A stretch of DNA of 64,000 nucleotides. Origin: Sutterella sp. Its GTDB lineage: Bacteria; Pseudomonadota; Gammaproteobacteria; Burkholderiales; Burkholderiaceae_F. How positions within the stretch are numbered: position 1 is the stretch's first letter; each line of letters opens with the position of its first letter. The notes beneath the pieces were generated by a model, which did not search any database, was not told the origin of the DNA, and saw only the letters and a list, made by a program, of their open reading frames with translations. The stretch covers positions 81,350-145,349 of the forward strand of contig DYBN01000054.1 in the NCBI GenBank assembly GCA_019418605.1. The letters are read 5' to 3'. A program made the translations under genes and the position numbers. Below are positions 40,521-63,824 of the stretch, one piece after another.

Positions 40521-40536
40521 TGTTCCACGTGGAACA
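40521..40536. promoter_or_regulatory. parS site 2
   Basis: TGTTCCACGTGGAACA is a perfect palindrome. Confidence 0.85.
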
Positions 40537-40718
40537 TTACTTTTGCCTGGCTTTTAGAGCAGACAGTGCCTTGCATCAACACTGTTGATCGAGCAATTGA
40601 TGCACGTGATTTTTCGGGATTTGATCTTTATGAATAGATTGCGAGAAAGAGATCTCCGTGCAAGTTTTGGATGCATTGATTGGATATACTCTCGAAACAC
40701 AAATGAAATTTGACTTGA

Positions 40719-40734
40719 TGTTCCACGTGAAACA
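40719..40734. promoter_or_regulatory. parS site 3
   Basis: TGTTCCACGTGAAACA. Confidence 0.85.
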
Positions 40735-40753
40735 TGAACGGCGCAGTGCCCGA

Positions 40754-40769
40754 TGTTTCACGTGGAACA
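40754..40769. promoter_or_regulatory. parS site 4
   Basis: TGTTTCACGTGGAACA. Confidence 0.85.
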
Positions 40770-40792
40770 TTGTTTAAGTTGGTGAGTGAGTT

Positions 40793-40808
40793 TGTTCCAC
40801 GTGGAACA
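40793..40808. promoter_or_regulatory. parS site 5
   Basis: TGTTCCACGTGGAACA ends 6 nt before the mnmG ATG. Confidence 0.85.
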
Positions 40809-40814
40809 TCAGCC

Positions 40815-42722
40815 ATGAATTACCCAGATAGTTTTGATGTCATTGTCGTTGGCTGCGGGCATGCCGGTGCAGAGGCTTCGCTGGCTGCGGCAAGAATGGG
40901 AGCGAAGACTCTTCTTGTTACGCACAATGTGGAGACGATAGGTCAGTTGTCGTGCAACCCGTCCATTGGCGGCATTGGCAAGGGGCACTTGGTTAAGGAA
41001 GTGGATGCAATGGGCGGCGCGATGGGAATCGTGACCGACTATGCCGGCATTCAATTTCGAATCCTGAATAGTTCAAAAGGACCTGCCGTGCGTGCGACGC
41101 GGGCACAGATTGATAGAAATCTGTACCGCGTGGAAATGCGCCGCCGTGTGGAAACTCAACCGAATCTTTGGATCTTTCAGCAAGCCGTCGACGATCTAAT
41201 TGTCAAAGGCGAGAGAGTTTGCGGCGTCGTCACAAAGACGAACATCCGCTTTTCTTCAAAAACGGTGGTGATCTGTTCCGGCACGTTCTTAAACGGCCTG
41301 GTGCACATCGGGTTGGATCATTATTCCGCCGGCCGTGCAGGAGATCCGCCTTCGATTGCTCTCGCTGAGCGCTTGATTGATCTGGGTCTGCCCAAGGGAC
41401 GGCTGAAGACTGGAACGCCGGCAAGAATTGATGGCCGATCCATTGATTTTGAAAAGTGCAAAAGACAAGACGGGGATTTAAATCCCGTTCCGTCGTTTTC
41501 ATTGATGGAGCCCGGCATTGAACATCCCCGTCAGGTTCCTTGCTGGATAACGCACACCAATGAGCGCATGCACGAAATCATCCGTGCGAATCTTGATCGC
41601 TCGCCCATGTATTCCGGCATCATCGAAGGGATCGGTCCGCGCTACTGCCCGTCCATTGAGGACAAGGTACAGCGGTTTAAAGACAAGACGAGCCACCAGA
41701 TATTTTTGGAGCCGGAGGGTTTGGATACGAATGAGTATTACCCGAACGGCATTTCCACTTCGCTGCCCTTTGATGTGCAGCTGGACATGATTCATTGCAT
41801 CCCCGGTTTGGAGCACGCGCATTTGCTGCGGCCGGGTTATGCAATCGAATATGACTTCTATGATCCTCGCGAGTTAAAGCGCACGTTCGAAACAAAGAAA
41901 CTCGCCAATCTTTACTTTGCCGGGCAAATCAACGGAACGACCGGTTATGAAGAAGCTGCGGCGCAAGGGCTCTTGGCGGGAATCAATGCCGCGGCACGCG
42001 CTTTGAATAAGGAAGAATGGTGCCCGCGGCGCGATGAGGCCTACATCGGCGTCATGGTTGATGACCTGACGACGCGAGGCGTGACGGAGCCCTACCGCAT
42101 GTTTACTAGCCGTGCGGAATATCGATTGAGCTTGAGAGAAGACAATGCGGATGTACGGCTCTCCGAGCTAGCACACCACCTCGGCGTTCTTCCGGAAGAG
42201 AAGTGGGAGCGTTTTCAAAGGAAAAAGGAAGCCGTTGAAAAAGAACTTCAGCGGTTGAAATCCGTCTGGGTCAATCCTTCTCTGCTCAAGGCTGGAGAGG
42301 CAAAACGTGTTTTAGGAACGGAGATTGAGCGCGAATACAACTTGTCCGCGCTTTTGTCGCGTCCCGCCGTACGGTATGAGGAGTTGATGACGCTTAAAGG
42401 TTCAGACGATCAGTTGATCAGTCAGGATCGGCTGCAAGACTCCCGCCAGATCGAACAGGTTGAAATTGCGCTGAAGTACCAGGGTTATATCGAACGGCAA
42501 AAAGAAGAAGTTCAGAAAACTCTGGTGCACGAAAGCATGCAAATACCGGAGGATATGGACTACGACAAAGTCGTGGGGCTTTCTTTTGAGGTTCGTCAGA
42601 AGTTAAAGGCCGTGCGGCCTGAGACGCTGGGACAGGCAAGCCGAATTTCCGGCGTGACGCCAGCCGCCGTGTCTTTGTTGTTGATTCACTTAAAGCGCCT
42701 CAAATGGGGGAAGCCGGCATGA
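40815..42722 (+). CDS. mnmG: tRNA uridine 5-carboxymethylaminomethyl modification enzyme MnmG (GidA)
   Basis: It has '[15 protein letters not shown]', '[17 protein letters not shown]' and '[11 protein letters not shown]'. The start is taken at ATG 40815; the upstream part of the track ORF covers parS sites. Confidence 0.97.
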
Positions 42723-43375
42723 TGTTCCAACCTGAAGCAATCAGAGCGCGTGTTCAGGAGCTCCTGTCAATTGAGCTTGACGAGGAAGAGGCGCGTTTGC
42801 TTTCTCGCTTTGCCGAACTGTTGCTGAAGTGGAATGCAACGTACAACCTCACCAGCATCACATCAAGCGAAGAAGTCATTGACCTTCATTTGGTGGATTC
42901 GCTTGCTTTGGTGAAATACGCCGACAAATACTTAAACGGCGAAAAGAGCGTTCTCGACGTTGGCAGCGGCGGCGGGCTTCCAGCCATTCCCTTGGCCATC
43001 ATGCGGCCGGAACTGCACATTACGATGGTCGACGCCGTTCAGAAAAAGACGATCTTTCAGCGTCAGGCAATTGCCATGTGCCGGCTGAAAAACATTGAGG
43101 CGGTGCATGCGCGGGTGGAAACGATCAAGAATCGACAATTTGATCTGGTGACAAGCCGTGCATTTTCCTCTTTGTCCGAGATGATCCGCCTGACGGAGCA
43201 TCTGCTCGCGCCAGAAGGCCTGTGGATTGCCATGAAGGGGAAGTTTCCGGAAAAAGAAATTGAGGATTTGCCGAAAAACGTGCGCGTGCGCGAGACGATG
43301 GAGGTTAAAAATCTCAATTTCGAGCGTCATTTAATTGTCCTTGAGAAATTTTCATCGAGTATTCCATCATCTTGA
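42719..43375 (+). CDS. rsmG: 16S rRNA (guanine527-N7)-methyltransferase RsmG (GidB)
   Basis: It has the SAM motif '[17 protein letters not shown]' and '[10 protein letters not shown]'. Its ATG overlaps the mnmG stop (ATGA). Confidence 0.93.
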
Positions 43376-43577
43376 GGTCAAATAAACGCATGTCGCAAAT
43401 GAAGGGTTTTTGGAGAAAAAAAAGCGAAATTTTCTGCAGAATTTGCGATGATTTGATGCATGCAGGGAAATTTGTGCGGGATTGAAAATTCGACTTATTT
43501 CAAACGTGCATGCAGGGATCAGCAAGCTGCAGGGCGAACCGAATCCATTTCTTTCGTTTGAGTGGGTTTTATAAAAA

Positions 43578-43595
43578 AGTTTGATATATCAAACT
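43578..43595. promoter_or_regulatory. Perfect 18-bp palindrome upstream of parA
   Basis: AGTTTGATATATCAAACT lies 17 nt upstream of the parA ATG. Its core, TTGAT-AT-ATCAA, is the same as upstream of mnmE. Confidence 0.35.
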
Positions 43596-43611
43596 ATAAG
43601 GAATAAAGGCA

Positions 43612-44409
43612 ATGGCTTATATTTTTTGCGTCGCCAATCAAAAAGGGGGCGTAGGAAAAACAACGACGGCGGTCAACACGGCGGCCGCCCTGGCGCGCAA
43701 GCGCCAGAAGGTTCTGCTCGTCGATCTTGATGCGCAGGGCAACGCCACGATGGGCTCGGGCATTGAGAAAAACGACTGCGCTCTGACCGTCTATCAACTG
43801 CTGATCGGCGAGGCGACGTTTGACGACGTGGTGCAGAAAAGCCCCACGGGGGGCTACGACGTGGTGCCAGCCAACCGCGACTTGTCGGCGGCTGAGCTTG
43901 ACTTGATGCAGCTTAAAAACCCCGACAAGCGCCTCAAAGGCGTGATCGACAAGGTGGCCGACCGCTACGACTTTATTCTGATCGACTGCCCCCCGTCGCT
44001 TTCGATGATCACGGTCAATGCGCTTTGTTGCGCAAAGGGCGTGATTATTCCGATGCAGTGCGAGTACTTTGCCTTGGAAGGTTTAAGCGACCTTGTCAAC
44101 ACCGTGCGCCGCGTGCGGCAAAACAAAAATCCCGACTTGACGATCATCGGGCTTTTGCGCGTGATGTTTGACGCGCGCATGACGCTGCAAAAGGAAGTGA
44201 GCCAGCAGCTCAAGGACAACTTCGGCGACCGCGTCTTTGATGCGGTGATCCCGCGCAACGTTCGTCTGGCCGAGGCACCGTCCTATGGCGAGCCCGGCAT
44301 TGTCTACGACAAAACAAGCCGAGGAGCGAAAGCCTACCTTGCCTTCGGGCGCGAATTGATCAAGCGCATGAAGGATGCGCAGGGCGTTGAGAACACAACT
44401 GAGGAGTGA
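43612..44409 (+). CDS. parA: Chromosome partitioning ATPase ParA (Soj)
   Basis: It has the deviant Walker A 'NQKGGVGKTTT'. Confidence 0.96.
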   Translation: MAYIFCVANQKGGVGKTTTAVNTAAALARKRQKVLLVDLDAQGNATMGSGIEKNDCALTVYQLLIGEATFDDVVQKSPTGGYDVVPANRDLSAAELDLMQLKNPDKRLKGVIDKVADRYDFILIDCPPSLSMITVNALCCAKGVIIPMQCEYFALEGLSDLVNTVRRVRQNKNPDLTIIGLLRVMFDARMTLQKEVSQQLKDNFGDRVFDAVIPRNVRLAEAPSYGEPGIVYDKTSRGAKAYLAFGRELIKRMKDAQGVENTTEE

Positions 44410-44415
44410 TGAACC

Positions 44416-45348
44416 ATGGCGACGAAAAAAATGCGCGGACTCGGGCGGGGGCTTGACACCCTCCTGGGCGAAGATGTGGCAAAGACCAAAGCGGCTCCCG
44501 CCGAGACTGCCAAGGCCGCACCGGCTGCCGCAGCACCGGCCGAGAACGCAGTGGTCGAACTCGAGCTCACGCTTTTAAAGGCGGGCAAGTATCAGCCCCG
44601 CACGCTCATTGAGCAGGAAAAGTTAAGCGAACTTGCCGAGTCGATCAAGCAGCAGGGCGTCATCAGTCCCATCATCGTGCGTCGTACGGCCAACGGCCGC
44701 TACGAAATCATCGCGGGCGAGCGGCGCTTCAGAGCGTCCAAGATTGCCGGCAAAAAGACGATTCCTGCGATCGTGCGCACGGTTCAGGACAAGGACGCGC
44801 TTGCCATGGCGCTCATTGAAAACATGCAGCGCGAGGACCTCAACGCCATGGAGGAGGCCCAAGGCGTCAAGCGCTTAATCGATGAATTCGGCTACACGCA
44901 CGAGCAGGCGGCCGACGCCATCGGGCGCAGCCGCTCGGGTACGACGAATCTGCTGCGGCTTTTAAATCTGACGGAAGCCGTGCAGCGCATGTTGATTGAC
45001 GGCAAGATCGACATGGGGCACGCCCGGGCACTGCTCTCCCTTTCGGGGGCCGAGCAGATCGAGGCCGCCAATGAGATTGTCGCCAAAGAGCTCTCCGTAA
45101 GAGAAGCCGAAAAGCTCGTGCAGCAGGCTGCGGCCAAGCCGCGGACCAAGTCGGCCGCCAAAAAGGAGCCCAAGGTCAACCGCGACGACCAGATTTTGGA
45201 AGAGCGCCTCTCGGAGGCAATCGGCGCGCCCGTGCACGTCGTCTACGGCAAGAAGGGCAAGGGGCAGGTGGTGATCGATTTTGCCAACTTCGACGATCTC
45301 GACTCGCTTCTTGAGCGCATCGCGCCGGGCGTGAAGGCCGAAAGCTGA
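44416..45348 (+). CDS. parB: Chromosome partitioning protein ParB (Spo0J)
   Basis: It has the ParB box 'IIAGERRFRA' and the HTH 'HEQAADAIGRSRSGTTNLLRLL'. Confidence 0.96.
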   Translation: MATKKMRGLGRGLDTLLGEDVAKTKAAPAETAKAAPAAAAPAENAVVELELTLLKAGKYQPRTLIEQEKLSELAESIKQQGVISPIIVRRTANGRYEIIAGERRFRASKIAGKKTIPAIVRTVQDKDALAMALIENMQREDLNAMEEAQGVKRLIDEFGYTHEQAADAIGRSRSGTTNLLRLLNLTEAVQRMLIDGKIDMGHARALLSLSGAEQIEAANEIVAKELSVREAEKLVQQAAAKPRTKSAAKKEPKVNRDDQILEERLSEAIGAPVHVVYGKKGKGQVVIDFANFDDLDSLLERIAPGVKAES

Positions 45349-45357
45349 GGCGGCGAA

Positions 45358-45385
45358 TGAAACCCACTAAGTTTGTGGGTTTATA
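45358..45385 (+). terminator. Hairpin after parB
   Basis: AAACCCAC-taagttt-GTGGGTTT is followed by AT-rich sequence. Confidence 0.55.
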
Positions 45386-45470
45386 CCTAGAAAGGAATAC
45401 TCAATGTTAAGTCCTTCAGGTACTTGTTAAAAAGTATGTTCACCCGTAAAATTTCGCTGTTTTAGGGGCA

Positions 45471-45836
45471 GTGCACGATATGAATCGTGAGGAATTGATC
45501 CGTATCGTCGTCTGGCAGTACGCATGTGTCAGCGCGGTGGCGCTTGTTGCCTGGCTCGTCTGGGGAACAACGCAGTGCCTGTCCGCGCTTGCTGGCGGTC
45601 TGTGCGTGGCCGTCCCGAATTCTCTTTTCGCGTTCAACCTGATCATTGGTCAGCTGTCCGGAAAATCGGTCCGACCGATCGGCGTCATCGTCGGAGAGTT
45701 CCTCAAAATGATCGTCATCTGCTGTCTTTTTGCAGCGGTGGCGAAATTCTTCCCAGGTGTGAATTGGCCGGCATTGCTCGCGGGTATCGTCGCAGCGGTG
45801 TTCGGGCAGTTTGCTCTGATCTTTTACAAACACTAA
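45471..45836 (+). CDS. atpI: ATP synthase protein I
   Basis: It is a small hydrophobic protein directly upstream of atpB. Confidence 0.7.
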   Translation: MHDMNREELIRIVVWQYACVSAVALVAWLVWGTTQCLSALAGGLCVAVPNSLFAFNLIIGQLSGKSVRPIGVIVGEFLKMIVICCLFAAVAKFFPGVNWPALLAGIVAAVFGQFALIFYKH

Positions 45837-45851
45837 ACCGAAGGATAGGTT

Positions 45852-46685
45852 ATGTCTACGACTGAAGCGCTCAGCCCTACCGGGTACATGCTTCATCACC
45901 TTGCACATAATGCCTCAGGGAAGATGTCGTCGATCATTGATTTTTCAGTGATCAACTACGACACCATCGTGTTTTCCGTTCTCATGCTCTGTCTCGGTTT
46001 GTGGCTCCTGTATCGGGGAGCGCGCAAGGCGACCAGCGGCGTGCCCGGAAAATGGCAGTGTGCGGTTGAAATGCTCGTCGAAATGGTCGAGGAGCAGAGC
46101 AAGTCGATCGTGCACGGCGACCGCACGTTCATTGCTCCCGCGGCTCTGACGGTCTTTGTCTGGGTGGTGTTGATGAACGCCATCGATTTGGTGCCCGTCG
46201 ATCTGCTGCCGTGGGTGGCAAGTCTGTTCGGCATCAACTATCTCAGGCCGCTGCCGACTGCGGACTTGAACGGAACGCTCGGCATTTCCGTGAGCGTGCT
46301 GATTCTTTGCATCTACTACGGCCTGAAGGTCAAGGGCGCGGGCGGCTTCGTGCACGAGCTCTTCTCGGCTCCCTTCGGCAACAACATTCTTCTGTGGCCG
46401 TGCAACTTCGCGCTGAACATCGTTGAGTACATCGCCAAGACCGTCAGTCTCGGCATGCGACTGTTCGGCAACATGTATGCCGGCGAACTGGTTTTCTTCC
46501 TGATTGCTCTTTTGGGCGGCTATGCGCTGTCGTTCGGCGTGGTCGGCGGCACCATGAGCGCGATTGGACAAGTTGTGGCGGGCCTCTGCTGGTGGCTGTT
46601 CCACATTTTGATTGTTCTTCTGCAGGCGTTCATCATGATGATGCTGACCTTGGTCTACCTTGGTCAGGCGCATGAGTCGCACTAA
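45852..46685 (+). CDS. atpB: F0F1 ATP synthase subunit a
   Basis: It has 'SLGMRLFGNMYAGE' with the conserved Arg. Confidence 0.96.
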   Translation: MSTTEALSPTGYMLHHLAHNASGKMSSIIDFSVINYDTIVFSVLMLCLGLWLLYRGARKATSGVPGKWQCAVEMLVEMVEEQSKSIVHGDRTFIAPAALTVFVWVVLMNAIDLVPVDLLPWVASLFGINYLRPLPTADLNGTLGISVSVLILCIYYGLKVKGAGGFVHELFSAPFGNNILLWPCNFALNIVEYIAKTVSLGMRLFGNMYAGELVFFLIALLGGYALSFGVVGGTMSAIGQVVAGLCWWLFHILIVLLQAFIMMMLTLVYLGQAHESH

Positions 46686-54766: not shown

Positions 54767-54854
54767 TTGTGCACAGCCTTTTCACAAGGTTTAAACAGGT
54801 TTTCCAGAGCCTCTTCACAGGTTCTGCACAAGCCTTTCCACAGACTTTTCCACA
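54767..54854 (+). repeat. Array B: eight DnaA-box-like 9-mers in 11-bp register
   Basis: TTGTGCACA (54767), CTTTTCACA (54778), GTTTAAACA (54789), TTTTCCAGA (54800), CTCTTCACA (54811), TTCTGCACA (54822), CTTTCCACA (54834) and TTTTCCACA (54846). Start-to-start spacing is 11,11,11,11,11,12,12. Confidence 0.6.
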
Positions 54855-55089: not shown

Positions 55090-55437
55090 TTAGGGGACCT
55101 TGATGTCGCGGAACTCATGGCACTGATCGCACACGAGCCGCGGGGGCTTGTGGCCCTGATGGCAGTCGCCGCAGGGGACTTCGCCCAGGTGGGAGTCGTG
55201 CGGATTCATGTCGGCGTCGGCCGTCTGTTCGGCGAGCTTGGCGTACGTGCCGCCGTGGCAGGCAAGGCACTGCTTGTCGACGCCCTGGGCCTTGGGCGGC
55301 ATCGGGTTGTGGCAGGACTCGCACTTGAGGCCGCGGGCGACGTGACGGTCGGCAAGAAGCGCATCGGCAGCCGTCGAGACGCCGGCCACGGCGCCTAAGA
55401 CGGCGGCAAGCACGAGCTTGAGGCAAATGTTTTTCAT
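55090..55437 (-). CDS. Periplasmic tetrahaem cytochrome c (Fcc3 N-terminal-domain-like)
   Basis: It has a Sec signal peptide and four CXXCH motifs (CESCH, CLACH, CGDCH, CDQCH). 'NPHDSHLGEVPCGDCHQGH...CDQCHEF' parallels the haem domain of Shewanella flavocytochrome c3. Confidence 0.88.
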   Translation of the reverse strand: MKNICLKLVLAAVLGAVAGVSTAADALLADRHVARGLKCESCHNPMPPKAQGVDKQCLACHGGTYAKLAEQTADADMNPHDSHLGEVPCGDCHQGHKPPRLVCDQCHEFRDIKVP

Positions 55438-55565
55438 GGTTGTTTCTTGCTAAGAAGTAGGGCACCGGCCGTCTCTCGAAAGTGACGGCTCCCTTTCGGG
55501 GAACGCTCCCGTGAGGGCGGCGCGAGCAACATCGCAGACGGCCCGGTGCGGTGAAAACGAAGGCT

Positions 55566-57155
55566 TTAGCTCCAGGGCTTTTCAGCGGCGACGTTGCGGC
55601 CGGCGATGCGCCCGAAGACGCAGGCCTCCGAGTTGTTCGTGGCGCCCTGATAGATGTGGCCCCACATGGAACCGAGTTCGCCTGCGCTGTAAAGGCGCGG
55701 GATGGGCTTTTTGAGCGCCGTGAGCACCTGGCCGCGTTCGTTGCGGCGCGGGCCGCCCTGGGTGTTCAAAAGCGTCGGGTAGAGCTTGGCCGCGTAGTAC
55801 GGTCCCTGCTCGTCGAAGGGCTCGCTGATGATGGGAGCCTCGCGCCCTTCAAAGGCGATCTTGCCCTTCTTCTTCAGGGGACGGCCGAACTCCTTGTCCG
55901 CGCCCGACTTGATGTTTTCGTTCCAGGTGCGCAGCGTCGCCTCGAGGTTTTCAGCCGGCACGCCGATCTTTTCGGCCAGCGCCTTGATGCTCGGGGCCGA
56001 GACGATCACGCCCTTTTCGATTTCGGCGCTGTTGTCGCGGCTCCACTTGTAGTTCTCGCGGTTGATGGCCCAGCCCGAAGTGGCCCCGCCCACGATGGGA
56101 CCGCGCTTGCGGGCCTTCTCGTCGAAGATGACGTAGCAGGGGATGCGCGGGTAGCGGTGTTTGATGGCGTCAAGGTAGTTCACCGCATAGATGCAGGTGT
56201 GGTTGTCCATCTTCTCGTTGCAAAAGCGCTTGCCGTCCTGATCGACGTAGAAGTAGCTCGCGGCGAGCATGTTGATCTGAAGCGACGTTTTGAGCCCCGG
56301 CACTTCGAGCCCCAGGGGGCACGAGAGCGCATTCATGTGCCAGAGGCCTGCGCCTGCGGCCTGCGCCATGCGGATGCCGTCGCCCGTGTTGCCCGGGCAC
56401 CCGAGGCGATGAAACATCTGGCCCATGGTGTGGTTTTGCAAGAGCTCGTCGTCAAACTCAAAGCCGCCCGTGCAGAGCACGACGCCGCGGCGGGCCTTGA
56501 CGGCCTGCTTTTTGCCGTCGATTTCGACCCAGACGCCAAGGACTTCGTCGTTTTCGCGGATGAGCTCAAGGGCGCGGGCGTTGTAGACCACGGGGATCTT
56601 GCGGGTGGTTTCGACCGCGTAGCGGTAGTTCTTAAAGAGCATGTCGCCGCCGCGCAGCTTGAGTCCCTTCGGGGTGCGGAAGCGCCACTTTTCGATGGCG
56701 TCGGACTCGGGGATGTTGGCAAAGCCCGCGTAGCCGTAGATGTAGATCTTCTGGTCGGGCGCCAGAGACATGAGGAAGTCCTTGGACTTCATGGCCTCCT
56801 TGACGAAGGTGCGCAGCTGGGTGCGGTCGATTTCGCTGTTGGCAAAGGAGTAGGTCTTCTCGAGGTAGGTGTAGGCGCGCTCTTCGTTGTTGGGGATCAT
56901 CATGCCGCCCGAGGAGACGGCGGTGTTGCCGCCGCCTTCGGAGAGCTTTTCAAAGATCATGACCTTGGCGCCGGCGTCGTGGGCGGTGATGGCGGCGCTT
57001 GCGCCCGCGCCGCCGTAGCCCAGGATGGCGACGTCGGTTTCAATGTCCCACTTGGCGGGCAGGTCGGCCTTTTTGGCGTGAGCGGCGCCCACGACGGGAA
57101 GAGCGGCGGCAAGGGCCGCGCCTTTCAAGAAACTGCGCTTGGAGATGTTGGTCAT
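55566..57155 (-). CDS. Tat-exported FAD-dependent reductase (fumarate reductase/flavocytochrome c flavoprotein family)
   Basis: It has the Tat-like signal 'MTNISKRSFLKGAALAAALPVVGAAHA' and the FAD motif 'GYGGAGASAAITAHDAGAKVMIFEK'. The start is taken at ATG 57155; the upstream part of the track ORF is Arg/Pro-rich junk. Confidence 0.85.
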   Translation of the reverse strand: MTNISKRSFLKGAALAAALPVVGAAHAKKADLPAKWDIETDVAILGYGGAGASAAITAHDAGAKVMIFEKLSEGGGNTAVSSGGMMIPNNEERAYTYLEKTYSFANSEIDRTQLRTFVKEAMKSKDFLMSLAPDQKIYIYGYAGFANIPESDAIEKWRFRTPKGLKLRGGDMLFKNYRYAVETTRKIPVVYNARALELIRENDEVLGVWVEIDGKKQAVKARRGVVLCTGGFEFDDELLQNHTMGQMFHRLGCPGNTGDGIRMAQAAGAGLWHMNALSCPLGLEVPGLKTSLQINMLAASYFYVDQDGKRFCNEKMDNHTCIYAVNYLDAIKHRYPRIPCYVIFDEKARKRGPIVGGATSGWAINRENYKWSRDNSAEIEKGVIVSAPSIKALAEKIGVPAENLEATLRTWNENIKSGADKEFGRPLKKKGKIAFEGREAPIISEPFDEQGPYYAAKLYPTLLNTQGGPRRNERGQVLTALKKPIPRLYSAGELGSMWGHIYQGATNNSEACVFGRIAGRNVAAEKPWS

Positions 57156-57682
57156 CTTCGTGACTCCTTTTGGTGTTGGGGTCCGGCGCCGAAGCGGCAT
57201 TCGGTTCGTTTCTGGCAAAGGCTTTGGAGCGAAAAAGAGAAGGCGGGATGCCCTCTTGTCCCCTGCGGGTGCCCGGAAAACGAAGCCGCCGCGCTGCGGC
57301 CGGGTTTTTCTTGGCGGCAATCATCCCGCCTGCGGCTACGTAAGTAGCTTGCGGGCGCACAAGAAAACCCGAAAAAAACTGCCGCGGGTCAGCTGCGGCG
57401 CACCCGGCGCAGGGCCGGGGTCCGGCGCCCTGAGCCGCCTGATGTGCGGCCTGGTGTGCGGGGAGCTTTTTGCCGCGCACCGGTACAATCCGCCTGATTT
57501 CCTTAAAAAAAGAGCCCCGCGCCGCGGCGCCAGGCACCGCAGCGGTCCTCAAGCCTCTTTTTTTTCTCATTTCCTCACTGCTTTTCCCGGATTTTTTGCG
57601 ACAAGGACGCACTGCCTGCCGCGTTGCTTTCAAGCACGAAAAGAGGCGCTGCGGGCGTCGTTCTTGACAAAAGGAGCTTTCC

Positions 57683-60600
57683 ATGCCCGCTTTGGAGAAT
57701 GCGCAGCCGGCCGAGGCCGGACGGCAGACCGAATATGGAACCACCTGGTGGGGGCGCCGATGGCTTGACGCCCTGGCGGGCATCGACTACGAAAACCGCA
57801 TTCCGCGCGGCAAGGCCTATGCCGATCAGGGGCGCGTTTTAAGCTTTAAGGCCGATCCCAAAAAGAGGCTTGTGAAGGCGCGCGTTGAAGGCAACTACGA
57901 TCCGTTTTATCTGGTGCGGCTCAAGTTCGAGGCGATCGCGCCGCGAAAGTTAAAAAAGCTCATCGACGAGATGGCCGCCTCGCCCCTGATCGTCTCGCGG
58001 CTGGCCGCGCGGGAGCTCTCGCCTGAGATCGCGGAAATTTGCGACCGGCTCGACATCCGCATCTTCCCGCAGTCCTGGAAGGATATCGACATGCAGTGCT
58101 CGTGCCCGGACGAGGCCGTGCCCTGCAAGCACATCGCCGCCGTGATCTACAAGATGTGCGAGGAAATCGACGCCAATCCCTTCATCCTCTTTCAGCTGCA
58201 CGGAATTGACCTCATCGGCCAGATGCAAAAGCGCGGCGTCGAAATCGACCGCGCCGTCGACGTGGAGCTGCCGCGCTGGAAGGACCTGGTGGCTGAAACC
58301 GGAGTCCCCGCGCCCGAAGACGACGAGCAGTGGCTTGCCGCCTTGTCGGCCGTGACCTTCGAGAAGCCCGCCGCGCAGGGCGAGGCGCTCGCCAAGCTTT
58401 TTGCCGACAAGCCCGCGGGCTACACCCGCGGCAGCCTGCGCGAGCTCCTTGTGCGCGTGCTCGAGCGCGCCTCAAGGCTTGCCGCGAGGCAAAAAAGCCT
58501 CAAGGCCGAGCGCACGCTGCCCGAGTATGACGAGAGCAAGCCTCTGCTGTCAGTCAACGGCTGGGGACAGACGCTGCCGGATGCGTCTCTCGTTTGGCGC
58601 GAAAGAAGCGCCGAAGGCGAGCTGCAGGTGCTGCAGGCAGGCAAGCCCGGCTTTAGTGCCTTGCGGTTTGCGCGCGGCTTTGATTCCCGCCGCAGGCCCT
58701 TGTTTGAGATGTTTTCGGGCTTTTTGACCGCCCGCGACTTTGCCGAAGCCCCCAAGGCCCTTGAGGCGCTTTTTGACGCCTGGCTTGTTGCCTCGCGTCT
58801 GGTTGAAAGCGGCGCGGTGCTCGCACAGGCCTATGAGCCGGTCGAAGACTTCATCGCCGTGCGCTGGATGCCGGCGGTGCTCGACGCAGGCGTGCGCTCC
58901 ATCACCGAGCGCGTGGGCGAGGCGTTTGCGCACGTTGACAGGGACTTTTTGCGCATCTCCGGCACCCGAAGCCCGGTTCACCCGCTGCTTTTGGGCGAGC
59001 TCGTGCTCGGCGTCTTCATCGAGAGCTACGTGCACGAAGCGTTTGCCGAGGAGATGGCGCTTGCGGGCGAAGAGCCCGAAGCCCAGGACGAGCGCAGCAT
59101 CATCTTTGCGGGCGCAACGGTCGATCGAAGCGAGGATGCGGAAATCGAGGCGCTTGCCATGCGCGTGGAGAGCTGGCTCTCGCCCCTGGTGATGGAGGCG
59201 GCGCTGCCGGTCAAGCCCATCGTGGTGGTCTACGACTGCGCGGCCGCGGGCGGCGCCGACGACATCAAGGACGCCCCCGTTTCGCTGGAGCTGCGCTTTG
59301 CGCTCAAGGACAAGGAGAAGGCCCCCGAGAGCGTGGCGCTTTTCGACATCCTCGAAGAGGACGACTACAAGGACGTGCGCTTTGACTGCCTGCGCTCGGT
59401 CTCGCAGCTTTCCTCGCACTGCCCGGCGCTCACCGAACTTTTGCGAAACAAAACGAGCCGGCGGCAGGTCACGCTCGAGCAGCTCACGGACCTTCTTTTT
59501 GAGTCGCTGCCCGCGCTGCGGCTGCTCGGGGTGGACATCGTGCTGCCGCGCAGCTTGAAGAGCCTGCTGCAGCCGCAGGCGCGCATGCAGATTGACTCCG
59601 AAGATGAATGGAAGCTGGGCAGCGGCCTCGGGGGACTGGCCTCGCTTTTGAACTTCCGCTGGCAGCTTGCCGTGGGCGATACGCCCGTCTCCGAAGAGGA
59701 GTTCGACAGACTCTGCGAGCACGCAGGCAAGGTCGTGCGCTTTCGCGACGGCTTCATGTACGTGAGCGCCGACGAAGTCAAGCGCATCCGGCACCGCCTG
59801 CAGCGGCGCTCCTTTACGAAGTCCGAGCTGCTGCGCGAGGCGCTCGGCTCGAAAAAGGGCGGCAAAGGGGTGGTTCTGGGCAAAAAGCTGCGGGCTGCGC
59901 TCGATCAGATTTTTGCCGACAGAGACATCGCCATGCCCGCGCACGTCGAGGCCGTGCTGCGCCCCTATCAGGAAAGGGGCTATCGCTGGATGATGCGAAA
60001 CTTCTACTCCGGCGTGGGCTCGATCATTGCCGACGACATGGGGCTTGGCAAGACGCTGCAGGTGATCACGGTTCTTGAGCGCCTGCGCGAAGACGGTGCG
60101 CTCGACGAAAAGCAGGCGCTTGTGGTGGTGCCGGCCTCGCTTTTAATCAACTGGCAGAGGGAAGTGGGCAGGTTTGCCCCCAAGCTGCGGCTTGGCATCT
60201 TCTACGGCCCCAACAGGGAGCTCGACGAGAGCGTACACATCATCCTCACCACCTACGGGACGCTGCGCTCCTCAATCAAGGTCCTCGGGGCCCGCAGCTG
60301 GCGCCTGCTTGTGATCGATGAGGCGCAGGCGGTCAAAAACTACCGCACGAGCGCCTTTAGAGCCGTGACAGGCGTTGCGGCCGACGGCGTGATCGCCATG
60401 TCGGGCACGCCCGTGGAAAACCGCCTCTCCGAGTACTGGTCGATCATGGAAGTGTGCAACAAAGGGCTTTTCGGCACGATCGGCGCATTTCGCGACGAGT
60501 TCGTCGTGCCGATTGAAATCAACCGCGATCCGGCCGCGGCCGAGGCGTTTCGCCGCATCAGTTCGCCCTTCCTGCTGCGGCGCATGAAGACCGACAAGTC

Positions 60601-61360
60601 GATCATCAGCGATCTGCCCGACAAGGTGGTAAGCGACGAATTCTGCACGCTCACCAAGGAGCAGGCCTCGCTCTACGAGGCCGAGGTCAACCGCGGCCTT
60701 GCGCTTGTCGAAGGCGCAAGCTCAAACTTCGTGGCGCGCGCTCTCGTGCTGCAGCTCATGGTGCGCTTAAAGCAGATTTGCGACGCGCCCGCGCTCTACG
60801 ACGCCGCCGCGGGGTGCGACTCTCCTGCAACGAGCGGCAAGATGCAGCGGCTCTTTGACATTCTCGACGAAATGCACGAGGCGGGCCGCAAGGTGCTCAT
60901 CTTCACGCAGTTCGTACAGATGGGGCTTTTGCTGCAGGGCTGGATTGAAGAGCACACCGGCCGCAGGCCGCAGTTTCTGCACGGCGGCCTGAACGTGCGC
61001 GCGCGACAGCAGCTTGTGGACCGCTTCCAGAAAAGGCGCGATGAAAACGTCATGATTTTGTCGCTGCGCGCCGCGGGCACGGGCTTAAATCTCACGGCCG
61101 CCTCCGCCGTGGTGCACTACGATCTGTGGTGGAATCCGGCCGTGGAAAACCAGGCCACCGACCGCGCCTACCGCATCGGGCAAAAGCAAAACGTGAGCGT
61201 CTACCGCTTCGTGACCGCCAACACGTACGAGGAGAAAATCAACGAGCTCATCGCTTCCAAAAAGGAGCTGGTGGACATGACGGTCGCCGCGGGCGAAAAC
61301 TGGATCGGAGACTTGAACCGCACCGAAATTGCCTCGATCTTCAGGCTCTCGGCGCGCTAG
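57683..61360 (+). CDS. SWIM zinc-finger / SNF2-family helicase
   Basis: It has the N-terminal 'WWGRRWLDAL...' region and the SWIM motif 'CSCPDEAVPCKH'. It also has the SNF2 motifs 'LRPYQERGYRWM', 'DDMGLGKT', 'DEAQAVKN', 'SGTPVENRL' and 'QATDRAYRIGQ'. An AAGGAG RBS lies upstream. Confidence 0.9.
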   Translation: MPALENAQPAEAGRQTEYGTTWWGRRWLDALAGIDYENRIPRGKAYADQGRVLSFKADPKKRLVKARVEGNYDPFYLVRLKFEAIAPRKLKKLIDEMAASPLIVSRLAARELSPEIAEICDRLDIRIFPQSWKDIDMQCSCPDEAVPCKHIAAVIYKMCEEIDANPFILFQLHGIDLIGQMQKRGVEIDRAVDVELPRWKDLVAETGVPAPEDDEQWLAALSAVTFEKPAAQGEALAKLFADKPAGYTRGSLRELLVRVLERASRLAARQKSLKAERTLPEYDESKPLLSVNGWGQTLPDASLVWRERSAEGELQVLQAGKPGFSALRFARGFDSRRRPLFEMFSGFLTARDFAEAPKALEALFDAWLVASRLVESGAVLAQAYEPVEDFIAVRWMPAVLDAGVRSITERVGEAFAHVDRDFLRISGTRSPVHPLLLGELVLGVFIESYVHEAFAEEMALAGEEPEAQDERSIIFAGATVDRSEDAEIEALAMRVESWLSPLVMEAALPVKPIVVVYDCAAAGGADDIKDAPVSLELRFALKDKEKAPESVALFDILEEDDYKDVRFDCLRSVSQLSSHCPALTELLRNKTSRRQVTLEQLTDLLFESLPALRLLGVDIVLPRSLKSLLQPQARMQIDSEDEWKLGSGLGGLASLLNFRWQLAVGDTPVSEEEFDRLCEHAGKVVRFRDGFMYVSADEVKRIRHRLQRRSFTKSELLREALGSKKGGKGVVLGKKLRAALDQIFADRDIAMPAHVEAVLRPYQERGYRWMMRNFYSGVGSIIADDMGLGKTLQVITVLERLREDGALDEKQALVVVPASLLINWQREVGRFAPKLRLGIFYGPNRELDESVHIILTTYGTLRSSIKVLGARSWRLLVIDEAQAVKNYRTSAFRAVTGVAADGVIAMSGTPVENRLSEYWSIMEVCNKGLFGTIGAFRDEFVVPIEINRDPAAAEAFRRISSPFLLRRMKTDKSIISDLPDKVVSDEFCTLTKEQASLYEAEVNRGLALVEGASSNFVARALVLQLMVRLKQICDAPALYDAAAGCDSPATSGKMQRLFDILDEMHEAGRKVLIFTQFVQMGLLLQGWIEEHTGRRPQFLHGGLNVRARQQLVDRFQKRRDENVMILSLRAAGTGLNLTAASAVVHYDLWWNPAVENQATDRAYRIGQKQNVSVYRFVTANTYEEKINELIASKKELVDMTVAAGENWIGDLNRTEIASIFRLSAR

Positions 61361-61484
61361 CGCAAAGGCGGGCAGGCCCCTTTCGGGGCGGTCCGCCTTT
61401 CGGGTGCTTTCGCGGCTGTCTTTCAGAAGGGCTTTTGCCCTTGATGCGGCTTGCGAAAACCGGCCCGGCGCGGGGGCAAAACGG

Positions 61485-61752
61485 GTTTTCCGCAAAGTTA
61501 TCCACAGGCGCAGTCAAGCGCGCTTTCGGACACCCCGCCCCGGCCCCGGACGGGGGAGTCTGAGAAAAGAGGGCGTAGATCGTTGATTTGAAAGGGTTTT
61601 TGATATTACTGCTGCAATCGTGCAAGTTAACGCACATCCCTTGCAAAAGCGCTTTGCCGCAAGGCTTTCGCGAGTTTTCCGCAAAGTTATCCACAGGGGC
61701 TGTGAAAGGCTGTGGAGAGCCTGTGAAGGGATTGTGAAGAGCTTGTGAAGAA
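61485..61752. repeat. Array C: two identical 24-nt DnaA-box-bearing repeats plus five phased inverted 9-mers
   Basis: GTTTTCCGCAAAGTTATCCACAGG occurs at 61485-61508 and 61674-61697, with TTATCCACA at 61498 and 61687. TGTGAAAGG (61701), TGTGGAGAG (61711), TGTGAAGGG (61722), TGTGAAGAG (61733) and TGTGAAGAA (61744) then follow. Confidence 0.6.
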
Positions 61753-61811
61753 GAGGCTTTTTGCCGCGCGCTTTTTTGGTTTTTTTTCAGTCTTTTGTCG
61801 TTTTTCTTTCC

Positions 61812-63824
61812 ATGACCGGCCGCTACATTGAAGTTTTGCTCGACGTTCCCCTGCCGCCGCTTGACTATGCGCTGCCAGAGGGCGAAACCGCCGCGCCCGG
61901 CGAGCGCGTGGTTGTGCCGTTGGGGCCCCGCAGAAAGGACGTGGGGATCGTCGTGGCGGTCAAAGACGAAAGCGAGCTGCCGCCCGAGCGCATCCGGCCT
62001 GCCGAAGCGGTGCTCCACGACGTGGCTCCGCTTGCCAAAGACTGGCTTGACTTCACGCGCTTTGCAGCCGACTACTACGTCAAGTCCTGGGGCGAGGCGG
62101 CCGTGGCAAGCCTGCCGCTTTTTTTCCGCCACCCGCCCAAGGCGCGCTATGAGGCTAGCCTCAAGAGGCTTCGCACGATGCCTGCCAAAAAGACGCAGCC
62201 GGGGCCTCAGGTGGAGCTCAACGCCGAGCAGCGCGCCGCGGTTGAGGCCGTCACCGCAGCTGATGGCTACGCGACGTTTCTTCTTTTCGGGGTGACGGGC
62301 TCGGGCAAGACCGAGGTGTACCTGCACGTGATGCAGGAGGTGCTCAAGCGCTCGGAGTCGGCTCAGGTGCTCCTTTTGGTGCCTGAAATCAATCTCACCC
62401 CGCAGCTTGAGGCGCGCGTGCGCAGCCGCTTTGTCGACGAACTCGTCGTCACGATGCACTCGGAACTCACGCCCAACGAGCGCGCCCGCAGCTGGCTTGC
62501 CGTGCACGAGGGGAGAGCCCGCGTGCTTGTGGGCACCCGCATGGCGATCTTTGCAAGTTTTCAGGACCTCAGGCTCGTCATCGTCGACGAAGAGCACGAC
62601 CTGAGCTACAAGGCGGGCGAGGGGCTGCGCTTTTCGGCTCGCGACCTTGCCGTCAAGCGCGCGCACGACGCCCGCGTGCCTTGTCTTTTGGGGTCTGCGA
62701 CGCCTTCGCTTGAGACCTGGGCCAAGGCTCTTGCGGGCACCTACCGGCTGCTGCGGCTCTCGCAGCGGGCCGTGCAAAGCGCAATGCTCCCGCAGATGGA
62801 GCTCATCGACATCAGCCGCCGCAAGCCGCGCGTGTTCGCCCCGGAAATCAAGGAGGCCGTTGACGCCGCCTTGTCGCGCGGCGAGCAGGTGCTGGTCTTC
62901 ATTAACCGCAGAGGCTACGCGCCGGTTGTCACTTGTACGAGCTGCGGCTGGGTGAGCCGGTGCCTGCACTGCTCGGGCTTTACCGTGTTTCACAAGGCAA
63001 GCAGGCAGCTTGTGTGCCACCACTGCGGCAGCACCTACCCGGTGCCCGAGCGCTGCCCGAGCTGCGGCAATCCGGAGCTTGTGGCAATCGGCACCGGCAC
63101 GCAGAGAATCGAGGAGGGGATTGCCGCGCTCTGGCCCGAGGCCCGGGTTCTTCGCATCGACCGCGACAGCGTGCGCAGCAAAACGGCCGCGCAGGCCGCC
63201 TTTGGCAGCGTGCACGCTGGAGACGTCGACATCATCGTGGGCACGCAGATGATTGCCAAGGGGCACGACTTCAAGCACGTCACGCTCGTGGTGGTGTTAA
63301 ACGCCGACGCGCAGCTCGTAAGCCCGAGCGTGCGCGCCGAAGAGCACCTTTTTGCCACGCTCCTGCAGGTGGCCGGGCGCGCCGGGCGCGACAAGCTCGC
63401 TGGCCGCGTGATGATTCAAACGCGCTTTCCCTCGCACCCGATTTACGCCGACTTAAAGGCGCAAAGCTTTGAGAGCTTTGCCAAGCGCCTTCTTGCGGAT
63501 CGCCGGGAGGCCTTTGCGCCGCCCTACAGCTTTCAGGCGCTTTTGACGGCGCAGTCGCCCTCTTTGGAGAGAACGCTCGGGTTTTTGCGCCGCGCAAGGG
63601 ATGAAGCCCTGGCGCTTGCAGGCGACGATGTCGTCATCTACGACCCGGTGCCGATGCAGCTCATGCGGCTTAAAGACGCCGAGCGCGGGCAGCTTCTCAT
63701 CGAGTCCGCGCACCGGCCGCGCCGCCAGGCGCTGCTGCACGCGCTTGACGGCGTGCTGCGCGCGGGCTTTAAGGAATTCGGCGGCGTGGGCTGGGCCATT
63801 GAAGTCGACCCGGTCGACGTGTAG
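61812..63824 (+). CDS. priA: Primosomal protein N' (replication restart helicase PriA)
   Basis: It has the Walker A 'GVTGSGKTEVY', 'DEEHD', and the Cys-rich zinc region 'CTSCGW...CLHCSG...CHHCG...CPSCGN'. The start is taken at ATG 61812. Confidence 0.96.
   Translation: MTGRYIEVLLDVPLPPLDYALPEGETAAPGERVVVPLGPRRKDVGIVVAVKDESELPPERIRPAEAVLHDVAPLAKDWLDFTRFAADYYVKSWGEAAVASLPLFFRHPPKARYEASLKRLRTMPAKKTQPGPQVELNAEQRAAVEAVTAADGYATFLLFGVTGSGKTEVYLHVMQEVLKRSESAQVLLLVPEINLTPQLEARVRSRFVDELVVTMHSELTPNERARSWLAVHEGRARVLVGTRMAIFASFQDLRLVIVDEEHDLSYKAGEGLRFSARDLAVKRAHDARVPCLLGSATPSLETWAKALAGTYRLLRLSQRAVQSAMLPQMELIDISRRKPRVFAPEIKEAVDAALSRGEQVLVFINRRGYAPVVTCTSCGWVSRCLHCSGFTVFHKASRQLVCHHCGSTYPVPERCPSCGNPELVAIGTGTQRIEEGIAALWPEARVLRIDRDSVRSKTAAQAAFGSVHAGDVDIIVGTQMIAKGHDFKHVTLVVVLNADAQLVSPSVRAEEHLFATLLQVAGRAGRDKLAGRVMIQTRFPSHPIYADLKAQSFESFAKRLLADRREAFAPPYSFQALLTAQSPSLERTLGFLRRARDEALALAGDDVVIYDPVPMQLMRLKDAERGQLLIESAHRPRRQALLHALDGVLRAGFKEFGGVGWAIEVDPVDV

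Follow-up and report, generated by a model that had tools for sequence, protein, structure and literature searches.

The window, by which we mean the whole 64-kb stretch of Sutterella DNA analysed here, carries the gene priA for primosomal protein N' at 61812–63824 on the plus strand. Its ATG lies at 61812, and the 670-aa frame that starts there is a residue-for-residue match to the gene product recorded on other contigs. The gene upstream encodes an SNF2-family helicase and is followed by a hairpin; the sole tRNA sits downstream of priA. Between the hairpin and priA lies a non-coding element of ~260 bp for which a non-random cluster of DnaA boxes had been proposed, and our analysis supports that proposal.

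The 24-mer GTTTTCCGCAAAGTTATCCACAGG occurs at 61485–61508 and 61674–61697, both times on the plus strand, as exactly two copies 189 bp apart. Similarity between the two sites spans 36 nt (89% identity). No third copy was found in the 64-kb window, even when three mismatches were allowed, and 0.00 copies were expected from shuffled sequences, which places the repeat far above chance. Each copy consists of the DnaA box TTTTCCGCA, the spacer AAG and the perfect box TTATCCACA, and these 24-mers make up the element's two DnaA-box doublets. In the distal doublet the boxes lie at 61486–61494 and 61498–61506; in the proximal doublet we refer to them as box A (61675–61683) and box B (61687–61695). The only other perfect copies of TTATCCACA in the window are those at 23952 and 23975. 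The original prediction had thus described both the exact repeat and its two boxes per copy correctly.

Five base pairs past box B lies an inverted box, box C (61701–61709, minus strand; TGTGAAAGG, which is CCTTTCACA on the minus strand), so that A(+), B(+) and C(−) form the predicted head-to-head junction at 61675–61709. The inverted box after the distal doublet is decayed (AGTCAAGCG), unlike the one after the proximal copy. By its spacing, box C is also the first unit of a phased array of five inverted 9-mers, which start at 61701, 61711, 61722, 61733 and 61744 and are spaced 10, 11, 11 and 11 bp as had been predicted. The four further weak DnaA boxes (61711–61752, minus strand; CTCTCCACA, CCCTTCACA, CTCTTCACA and TTCTTCACA) have gaps of 1–2 bp, and the downstream end of the array is 60 bp short of the priA ATG. 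Boxes A and C have 1–2 mismatches to TT[A/T]TNCACA. For box C together with the array units behind it the number is 1–3, hence these are weak sites; the TNCACA part is kept by every unit.

An IHF-type site (TAGATCGTTGATT; 61576–61588, minus strand) with one mismatch to YAANNNNTTGATW, the reverse complement of WATCAANNNNTTR, is located between the doublets, 78 bp past the distal perfect box and 99 bp ahead of the proximal doublet. It falls within an AT-rich stretch (61575–61630; 56 bp, 36% GC) with one GATC (61578). That stretch, noted in the original prediction, is real but short, and we do not read it as an unwinding or SeqA region; it coincides with the position at which relatives conserve an IHF-consensus site. 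Further downstream we found a remnant dyad, TGCTGCAATCGTGCA (61610–61624; TGC-N9-GCA). Relatives have a 17-bp dyad, TGC-N11-GCA, which is an exact Fis consensus in 10 of 41 loci, at −77/−78; the window's dyad is 2 bp shorter, and the Fis consensus GNNYANNNNNTRNNC is not matched in the window's element. An inverted repeat, CCTTGC...GCAAGG (61638–61664), has its counterpart in other Burkholderiales in CCTTGATTTTCAAGG at about the same position.

Three phased arrays and a candidate origin

Phased arrays, defined as at least four weak DnaA boxes at 10–12 bp spacing, occur at three loci of the 64-kb window: at 24022 (four units), 54767 (eight units) and 61701 (five units, minus strand). None was obtained in 100 Markov simulations, and the same three loci are the densest DnaA-box clusters of the window. 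The companion array at 54767–54854 (plus strand) lies just after hemE and consists of eight head-to-tail DnaA-box-like 9-mers with gaps of 2, 2, 2, 2, 2, 3 and 3 bp, of which the last, TTTTCCACA, is a full match to TT[A/T]TNCACA. The three arrays had been taken for a dispersed repeat family. They are indeed the only phased DnaA-box arrays in the window, but they lack extended homology, and a profile of the element (see below) found no more than single-box matches at the hemE and 24-kb loci (E = 0.004 and 0.025).

The cluster at ~24 kb is a candidate chromosomal origin (23952–24215). It comprises two perfect minus-strand boxes (23952 and 23975), a phased plus-strand array (24022–24062), further boxes and an AT-rich region (24095–24215), which includes the most AT-rich 100 bp of the window (24101–24200, 27% GC); the cumulative G–C minimum is at 25340. 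Upstream of dnaA there is one DnaA box and an AT-rich tract is absent. The best interpretation of the 24-kb cluster is oriC itself, and the element is situated ~37 kb from this candidate.

A DnaA-box cluster, an IHF-type site and a short AT-rich stretch would also be expected if the element itself were a second or relic replication origin, and its linkage to hemE recalls the hemE-linked origins of the alpha-proteobacteria Caulobacter and Rickettsia, as cited in PMC1470461. However, GC skew showed no switch at the element, neither in the window nor across 12 related loci for which long flanks were available; in the latter the mean skew was −0.029 on either side. The AT-rich stretch is just 56 bp long at 36% GC, whereas 24101–24200 has a richer box cluster next to it and the skew minimum nearby. 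The end of hemE in relatives is so close to the distal box (within ~100 bp) that an unwinding element would not fit between them, and copies in tandem and between convergent genes (see below) also speak against an origin. We rejected an origin at the element on GC skew and AT content, both features being present at ~24 kb instead, and consider even a relic origin highly improbable. The array does resemble the left and right DnaA-oligomerisation regions of E. coli oriC, in which weak 9-mers of one orientation, ~2 bp apart, are anchored by a strong box and converge. Unlike oriC, the element has no adjacent duplex-unwinding element or skew switch.

Conservation of the element

Of 46 metagenomic loci in which priA directly follows hemE, 43 have the element. 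When a profile was made from 37 beta-proteobacterial loci, the window not included, it matched the window at 61580–61715 with E = 2.5e-10. Among 39 non-redundant loci, box B is TTATCCACA in 36 and the A–B spacer is AAG in 27. The distal site of most other beta-proteobacterial loci is a single box, mostly TTATGCACA, at −186 to −190 from the proximal perfect box. Exact IHF consensus sequences occur at −109/−110 in 30 of 41 related loci and at +40 in 27 of 41. Judged by these similarities, the window's element is a local, remodelled copy of a ~260-bp non-coding element that is conserved between hemE and priA in beta-proteobacteria.

In eight Sutterellaceae relatives the distal site is a doublet rather than a single box. 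The distance between doublets is 187–189 bp in the window and these eight; the distal doublet is 77–78 bp from the IHF-type site, which is 98–99 bp from the proximal doublet, and this phasing holds down to ~57% PriA identity. The best IHF-like match (0–2 mismatches) lies at the window's offset (77–78 and 98–99 bp) in seven of the eight, and in the eighth (L010) an IHF-like match is absent at the conserved offset. Box C is found in one of the eight (L093), at 4 bp, and the head-to-head box is conserved in other Burkholderiales, as TGGAT at 5 bp. The extension of the array behind box C is confined to the window (five units) and locus L012 (~3 units, register shifted by 10 bp). L012 also has an eight-unit array with the same gap pattern as the window's companion array after hemE, and L093 has two units.

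A search for the A–B–C trio pattern gave 44 matches in 1.13 Mb of retrieved loci plus the window, all of them in the hemE–priA element or in three alpha-proteobacterial loci of like architecture. Trios with the exact DARS spacing (see below) were found in 39 loci of other beta- and alpha-proteobacteria. Scanning reference genomes with the 21-mer TTTTCCGCAAAGTTATCCACA yielded six unrelated single matches, three of which are the alpha-proteobacterial loci of like architecture; here the counterpart lies directly 5' of uvrC, not next to hemE. One relative (L025) has a complete second copy of the element between the 3' ends of two convergent genes, and two others (L034 and L065) carry two to three copies in tandem.

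Sites of OmpR/PhoB/ArcA-type response regulators have the format of a 7-bp repeat with a 4-bp spacer and thus an 11-bp period. The TGTGAAG-type units, as direct repeats at 10–11 bp, might therefore bind such a protein instead of DnaA, or the whole feature might be a REP-like dispersed repeat. The shared period is what the first of these readings has in its favour; we find both very hard to credit, since TNCACA is kept in every unit, the first unit occupies the conserved position of box C, and the arrays are confined to the three DnaA-box clusters of the window. Nor does the 24-mer have further copies in the window or in an extra 10 kb of L001, and the synteny is kept in dozens of loci. A REP/BIME-type repeat, which the original prediction had named as the finding that would undo the link to DnaA, was rejected: the 24-mer is confined to one intergenic region of the window and its position is syntenic in 43 of 46 loci. 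A known RNA family was likewise rejected, as Rfam searches of the whole window at the gathering threshold and of 61300–61900 at E ≤ 1 returned the tRNA and chance-level matches only.

The proposed link to priA has to be qualified. A DnaA cluster does lie upstream of priA, but it is not peculiar to this genome; it belongs to an old, conserved hemE–priA intergenic element. In the examined loci the element stands directly 5' of priA in one orientation, and where genes have been inserted between hemE and priA, as in this species and in L012, it has been kept beside priA. These observations would fit a purely transcriptional role, in which a DnaA- and IHF-controlled promoter region ties PriA expression to DnaA status and DnaA itself is unaffected. 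The end of the window's array 60 bp ahead of the priA ATG points the same way, as do the alpha-proteobacterial counterparts directly 5' of uvrC and, in E. coli, DARS1 5' of uvrB and DARS2 5' of mutH. However, a promoter/terminator consensus scan of 61200–61900 gave no match and no sigma-70-type promoter, and an alignment of 27 loci showed no conserved promoter hexamers past the element. The tandem copies in L034 and L065 also count against this explanation, and a distal box fixed at ~187 bp, together with up to two exact IHF sites, exceeds the needs of simple repression. Since the second copy in L025 lies between convergent genes, regulation of priA alone is insufficient to explain the element. 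We consider a purely transcriptional role improbable; the extra copies and the absence of conserved hexamers suggest that the element is more than a promoter. A transcriptional function is nevertheless compatible with both of the readings weighed below, and the array probably makes priA transcription sensitive to DnaA.

Comparison with DARS1, DARS2 and datA

DARS elements are defined by three DnaA boxes, of which I and II are head-to-head and II and III have the same orientation (PMC11724364, PMC6868365). The spaces between the boxes show strong conservation across DARS1, DARS2 and predicted DARS candidates, and DnaA is recruited to the two outer boxes, I and III, by box II (Sugiyama 2019, PMC6868365). 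The core of the window's element reads TTTTCCGCA-AAG-TTATCCACA-GGGGC-TGTGAAAGG. As reverse complements, the E. coli cores read TAATACACA-TGG-TTATCCACA-GGAAT-AGTGGATAA for DARS1 and TTCTTCACA-ACT-CTATCCACA-GAAAA-GGTGAATAA for DARS2 (on the other strand, the spacers are ATTCC and CCA in DARS1, and TTTTC and AGT in DARS2). All three have identical orientations, 3-bp and 5-bp spacers and the best match in the middle box, with weaker outer boxes in the window. One search with the trio pattern retrieved the window's trio and both DARS cores, and nothing else in the window. In terms of sequence, box A is the equivalent of box III, box B of box II and box C of box I of a DARS-type trio.

Beyond the boxes no homology was detected: the element profile did not match the DARS1 and DARS2 regions at E ≤ 1e-3, and the neighbours differ, being hemE and priA here and the uvrB and mutH regions in E. 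coli. The element nevertheless shares further traits with DARS2, which lies upstream of mutH. The essential IHF site of DARS2, 87 bp from box III, has a putative counterpart here of equal orientation, ~90–100 bp off and likewise on the side of box III. Both have another strong DnaA box at ~190 bp from box II (197 bp in DARS2, 187–189 bp here) and a cluster of weak boxes at 2–3 bp gaps, and both stand 5' of a DNA-repair or replication gene. In DARS2, weak-box clusters with 2–3 bp gaps that are filled by ATP-DnaA only form a feedback device (PMC8682772). The differences are in the arms: our distal box or doublet is oriented like boxes II and III, whereas box V of DARS2 is opposite. The Fis-type dyad of the relatives lies between the core and the IHF site, and the Fis site of DARS2 beyond the IHF site; a Fis site, essential in DARS2, is missing in the window's element. 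Most relatives have a second IHF consensus on the box I side, unlike DARS2, and in the window the box I equivalent is extended into the five-unit array, which is also unlike DARS2. DARS1, upstream of uvrB, resembles the element in its identical trio geometry, perfect middle box, weaker outer boxes and position 5' of a DNA-repair gene. Unlike the element, however, it does not need IHF, has no distal arm and, with respect to the gene downstream, has its trio in the opposite orientation. The window's DnaA retains Gln208, Leu290, Asp269 and Arg285, the residues used in the DARS papers (PMC11724364, PMC6868365). A Thr435-to-Ala change was seen elsewhere in the same protein.

The composition of minimal datA is given in PMC10950094 and PMC11724364. 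In E. coli (NC_000913.3), box 7 (TTGTAAACA), GAG and box 2 (TTATCCACA) form a doublet with a 3-bp gap. The datA IHF site, TAACCTATTGATA, lies 65 bp past box 2 and 77 bp from box 7, and box 3 follows 97 bp past the IHF site, then the inverted box 4. The element has the same components, namely a doublet with its boxes 3 bp apart, a single IHF-type site of equal orientation, main boxes of one orientation on both sides of that site at fixed distances (78 and 99 bp in the window) and an inverted box beside the last. From the IHF site it is 97 bp to the next box in datA and 97–99 bp in the element; from box 2 to the IHF site it is 65 bp in datA, versus 77–78 bp here.

The element might therefore be a datA-like negative element, in which a DnaA–IHF loop promotes hydrolysis of DnaA-ATP or titrates DnaA soon after the nearby origin has fired, and the arrays here and after hemE serve as tracks for ATP-DnaA oligomerisation. 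The parallel layout of doublet, IHF site and box, in one orientation in the window and its relatives, agrees with this, and weak-box arrays favour ATP-DnaA. The Sutterellaceae keep the doublets and the phasing (with the IHF-type site in 7 of 8 relatives), not box C, and a datA-like complex fits this pattern better. The candidate oriC is only 37 kb away. In E. coli, datA lies closer to the origin, and a site near the origin is better suited to inactivating DnaA after initiation, as datA does, than to reactivating it. Against a datA-like element stands the A–3–B–5–C trio, which datA lacks (the trio search of the datA stretch, L091, gave no match) and which is kept with exact DARS spacing in the 39 other beta- and alpha-proteobacterial loci. 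The inverted box 4 of datA is 3 bp from box 3 and merely stimulatory. Moreover, datA follows a tRNA operon, and IHF binding there is controlled by read-through from it, whereas no tRNA operon reads into the element. On balance, we regard a datA-like function as possible but doubtful. DnaA-box clusters outside oriC also have regulatory or titrating roles in Bacillus subtilis. Those clusters have no fixed trio or IHF site, unlike the element.

A possible role in DnaA reactivation

We tentatively favour the reading that the element is a DnaA–IHF assembly site outside the origin, of the DARS/datA class, and that it acts like DARS in reactivating DnaA; we put the probability of this at roughly 35%. 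The mechanism that we infer would involve binding of DnaA and IHF, looping, nucleotide exchange and an effect on priA. DnaA would bind both same-orientation doublets (61486/61498 and 61675/61687), and IHF would bend the DNA between them at 61576–61588. The fixed distances of 78 and 99 bp would then allow the distal pair of DnaA molecules to loop back to the proximal one. The perfect box B would draw DnaA to its neighbours on both sides: head-to-tail to box A, 3 bp away, and head-to-head to the inverted box C, 5 bp away. As in DARS1 and DARS2, the forced head-to-head contact between DnaA AAA+ domains would cause ADP to be released, whereupon DnaA could rebind ATP. The four extra weak boxes behind box C, which are lineage-specific, may be filled cooperatively by ATP-DnaA alone; this would probably provide feedback on the complex, DnaA-responsive transcription of priA from a start within ~60 bp, or both.

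Several findings count against DARS-like reactivation. Box C, the counterpart of a box that is essential for DARS function, is mostly missing in the Sutterellaceae (present in 1 of 8 relatives, L093), and the arms resemble those of datA at least as well as those of DARS2. The distance of ~37 kb to the candidate origin, the one mismatch in the window's putative IHF site, the absent Fis consensus, the apparent lack of homology to DARS1 and DARS2 beyond the boxes and the differing neighbours also speak against it. Weak DnaA sites are bound poorly by ADP-DnaA in E. coli, and the predicted weakness of box C and its followers is a further argument of this kind.

In the literature that we found, DARS and datA are described solely for E. 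coli and its gamma-proteobacterial relatives; conservation of DARS2 is documented for nine species of that group (Kasho 2014, supplementary figure S10). We found no description of a DnaA-box element between hemE and priA or of DARS in beta- or alpha-proteobacteria, although candidates may have been mentioned earlier. By its sequence, the hemE–priA element closely resembles these sites, outside the gamma-proteobacterial group. The E. coli model of once-per-cycle initiation depends centrally on DARS1, DARS2 and datA, the sites at which DnaA is recharged or discharged. An element that combines the core geometry of DARS with exact IHF sites and fixed phasing, and that most beta-proteobacteria with hemE beside priA and some alpha-proteobacteria carry, would provide testable loci beyond E. 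coli and raises the question of a shared origin of DARS and datA. Strong DnaA-box clusters outside the origin, such as this one, can also mislead origin-prediction programs.

It is conceivable, if somewhat speculative, that the hemE–priA element, its uvrC-linked counterparts, DARS1, DARS2 and datA descend from, or have converged on, one ancient module, made of a trio (or doublet) of DnaA boxes, a bend introduced by IHF and a distal DnaA box, which would govern the nucleotide state of DnaA throughout Proteobacteria. In beta-proteobacteria the module would combine a DARS core with a datA-type arm. In the organism studied here it would be one of three origin-proximal DnaA loci (oriC at 24 kb, the eight-unit array after hemE and the element before priA) that may together time initiation and couple it to replication-restart capacity. 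The recurrent placement of such elements beside uvrB, mutH, uvrC and priA suggests that DnaA status and repair capacity are linked.

DnaA-box repeats upstream of priA and the conserved element

The intergenic region that separates priA (ATG at 61812) from the SNF2-family helicase gene before it (57683-61360) contains two copies of GTTTTCCGCAAAGTTATCCACAGG, at 61485 and 61674. No further copy was found in the window at up to three mismatches, nor would chance be expected to produce one. The similarity between the two copies extends over 36 nt, and each is a DnaA-box doublet, TTTTCCGCA-AAG-perfect TTATCCACA. In the second copy the doublet consists of boxes A (61675-61683) and B (61687-61695), both on the plus strand. 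Five inverted 9-mers, the first 5 bp past this copy, start at 61701, 61711, 61722, 61733 and 61744; the first is box C (61701-61709, minus strand). The original observation of two identical 24-mers and five inverted phased 9-mers before priA was confirmed in every detail. Phased arrays of at least four weak DnaA boxes occur exactly three times in the window (24022, 54767 and 61701) and were obtained in 0 of 100 simulations with a first-order Markov model.

We fetched 80 metagenomic loci encoding PriA relatives. Two same-orientation DnaA boxes, 186-190 bp apart, were found upstream of priA in most of them, with hemE directly upstream in nearly all loci with the two spaced boxes. Alignment of these hemE-priA loci yielded an element of ~260 bp. 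A profile built on 37 loci, with the window excluded, matched the window at 61580-61715 (E = 2.5e-10) and detected the element in 43 of 46 loci in which hemE abuts priA. The hemE-priA element is old and conserved, and a REP-type repeat was ruled out by copy number in the window and a further 10 kb (locus L001) and by synteny. Counted from the perfect box B, the distal box of the related loci is at -186 to -190. An exact IHF consensus (TAAGTCATTGATT type) follows at -109/-110 in 30 of 41 loci, and at -78 there is a dyad of 17 bp, TGC-N11-GCA, that fits the Fis consensus exactly in 10 of 41. Next comes box A-AAG-box B, with box B being TTATCCACA in 36 of 39 loci. A spacer of 5 bp, often GAAAA, leads to box C, which is weak and inverted and has the core TGGAT, and a second exact IHF consensus is at +40 (27 of 41 loci).

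Its position would fit a promoter of priA, but a promoter role alone is unlikely to be the whole story. Locus L025 carries a complete second copy (12120-12364) where priA and a membrane-protein gene converge, between their 3' ends, and tandem copies are present in loci L034 (three, 8915-9874) and L065 (two, 9260-9847). Promoter-like hexamers were neither found in the window priA upstream region nor conserved in the aligned loci.

The family set was enlarged by five Sutterellaceae loci (PriA identity 79-63%). Here the element has a doublet on both arms and its phasing is essentially invariant, with 187-189 bp from doublet to doublet, 77-78 bp from the distal perfect box to an IHF-type site and 98-99 bp from there to the proximal doublet. 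Distal and proximal doublets are nearly identical within a species and differ between species (window, 61482-61517 and 61671-61706; L012, 9552 and 9740; L009, 9716 and 9904). Since the doublets are closer to each other than to their orthologues, this suggests concerted evolution of the two arms, by gene conversion or co-adaptation. The Sutterellaceae loci do not conserve box C, and within this family the inverted multi-unit array is restricted to the window (five units) and L012 (about three units, register shifted by 10 bp).

Gene insertions between hemE and the element were likewise found, among the Sutterellaceae loci, only in the window species (55090-61360) and L012 (about 7200-9450). Both share inserted genes for a cytochrome c3 and a flavocytochrome c-like FAD protein (in the window at 55090-55437 and 55566-57320, both on the minus strand); the gene for the SNF2-family helicase (57683-61360; 1225 aa, Pfam domain DUF3670) is inserted in the window alone. 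In both species the element was kept on the priA side, and in seven other Sutterellaceae relatives (L009, L010 and L093-L097) hemE directly adjoins it.

Genomic setting and candidate origin

The window covers the neighbourhood of the origin in an uncultured Sutterellaceae bacterium. Among named organisms, relatives of its PriA come from a Sutterellaceae bacterium (70% identity), Duodenibacillus sp. (59%) and Sutterella sp. (54%), and the exact protein is present in metagenome assemblies. Gene content comprises dnaA-dnaN-gyrB (minus strand), followed by yidC, mnmE, mnmG, rsmG, parAB, the atp operon, hemE and priA. An IS1634-family transposase-like ORF (38797-40368) lies between mnmE and mnmG, and the mnmG, rsmG, parAB region (about 39000-46000) has a GC content of 0.51-0.55, clearly below the window average of ~0.61.

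The densest DnaA-box cluster of the window lies in a 618-bp intergenic region (23880-24497), with perfect boxes at 23952 and 23975 (minus strand), a four-unit phased array at 24022-24062 (plus strand) and additional boxes. After them, at 24101-24200, comes the 100-bp stretch with the highest AT content in the window (27% GC), and cumulative G-C reaches its minimum nearby, at 25340. The dnaA upstream region has one DnaA box and no AT-rich tract. We therefore read about 23.95-24.22 kb as the origin. It lies ~3.3 kb beyond gyrB and does not adjoin dnaA; on this reading, dnaA-dnaN-gyrB transcription runs towards the origin, head-on to the rightward fork. The priA-side cluster is ~37 kb away. An origin role of the element itself was ruled out by GC skew, both in the window and in 12 related loci (mean skew -0.029 on both sides), and it has no unwinding element.

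Just after hemE, an eight-unit head-to-tail array of DnaA-box-like 9-mers (54767-54854) ends in the full-consensus TTTTCCACA. The eight units of L012 (6751-6838) have drifted in sequence but keep exactly its gap pattern of 2,2,2,2,2,3,3, and L093 has two units (about 8438-8460). This array could be a track for ATP-DnaA oligomerisation or titration.

The DNA-binding motif of the window DnaA (gene at 31832-33235, minus strand) is GGRDHATIIYA, compared with GGRDHTTVLHA in E. coli, and has Ala at the position aligned with E. coli Thr435, a residue reported to give sequence specificity. In the clade of the window species, DnaA boxes often have G at position 7 (TTTTCCGCA), and we speculate that the two features may be linked.

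Resemblance to DARS and datA

The E. coli loci were taken directly from NC_000913.3. The cores of DARS1, TTATCCACT-ATTCC-TGTGGATAA-CCA-TGTGTATTA, and DARS2, TTATTCACC-TTTTC-TGTGGATAG-AGT-TGTGAAGAA, have the same box orientations and the same 5-bp and 3-bp spaces as the reverse complement of the window trio. This arrangement defines the DARS core, and its spaces are stressed as conserved (PMC11724364, PMC6868365). One trio pattern search retrieved the window trio, both E. coli cores and the related elements, with no other match in the 1.13 Mb searched and none in the datA stretch. In DARS2, box III is also 87 bp from an IHF site whose side and orientation are those seen in the window-type element; in addition, DARS2 has a strong box ~197 bp from box II and a weak-box cluster used by ATP-DnaA for feedback (PMC8682772). 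In datA, the box 7-GAG-box 2 doublet is followed by an IHF site 65 bp on, box 3 97 bp later and then the inverted box 4, a very close match to the arm layout of the window-type element. In its trio and arms, the element combines a DARS-type core with a datA-type arm.

All functional statements on the element are inferred from sequence. We lean towards a DARS-like rather than a datA-like role, since, of all the matches, the trio geometry is the most specific, and box C of the window lies at the canonical 5 bp; the window DnaA also keeps Gln208, Leu290 and Asp269. This preference is weak, however, because box C is lost in close relatives, the near-origin position favours datA and the window element has no Fis site. 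ATP-DnaA would fill the array behind box C, which could exert feedback on the complex or repress priA.

Distribution beyond the hemE-priA spacer

A 21-mer scan of reference genomes gave six chance-level matches, three of which fall in alpha-proteobacterial MAG loci that share the trio (L003, about 3331-3560, minus strand; L004, about 5300-5540; L007, about 7050-7290, minus strand), for example TTTTCCGCA-AAG-TTATCCACA-AGATC-CGTGGATAG. At -77/-78, each of the three has a dyad that matches the Fis consensus exactly. The distal box of L007, TTATACACA, is at -191; in L003 and L004 a weaker one, TTGTCCACT, was spotted by eye ~180 bp upstream. L004 matched the beta-proteobacterial element profile with E = 7.9e-11. 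A Clostridia MAG (L006, 2587-2607) also has this 21-mer double box between dnaA and dnaN, where Firmicutes origins are typically found, but lacks the inverted third box there. The A-3-B doublet is thus not in itself specific to the hemE-priA element.

DARS2 conservation has been shown in nine gamma-proteobacteria (Kasho 2014, supplementary figure S10). One review names 'beta- or gamma-proteobacterial species' without detail, and a passage of PMC6868365 mentions, after another paper, predicted DARS candidates in various species. Our literature search found no paper tying DARS to Burkholderiales or DnaA boxes to the hemE-priA spacer.

In the Rhodobacteraceae-like L003 and L004 the element is directly upstream of uvrC. 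Counting also the E. coli neighbours uvrB and mutH and, in the window, priA, all of these are DNA-repair or restart genes. The element is of real interest to specialists in replication control.
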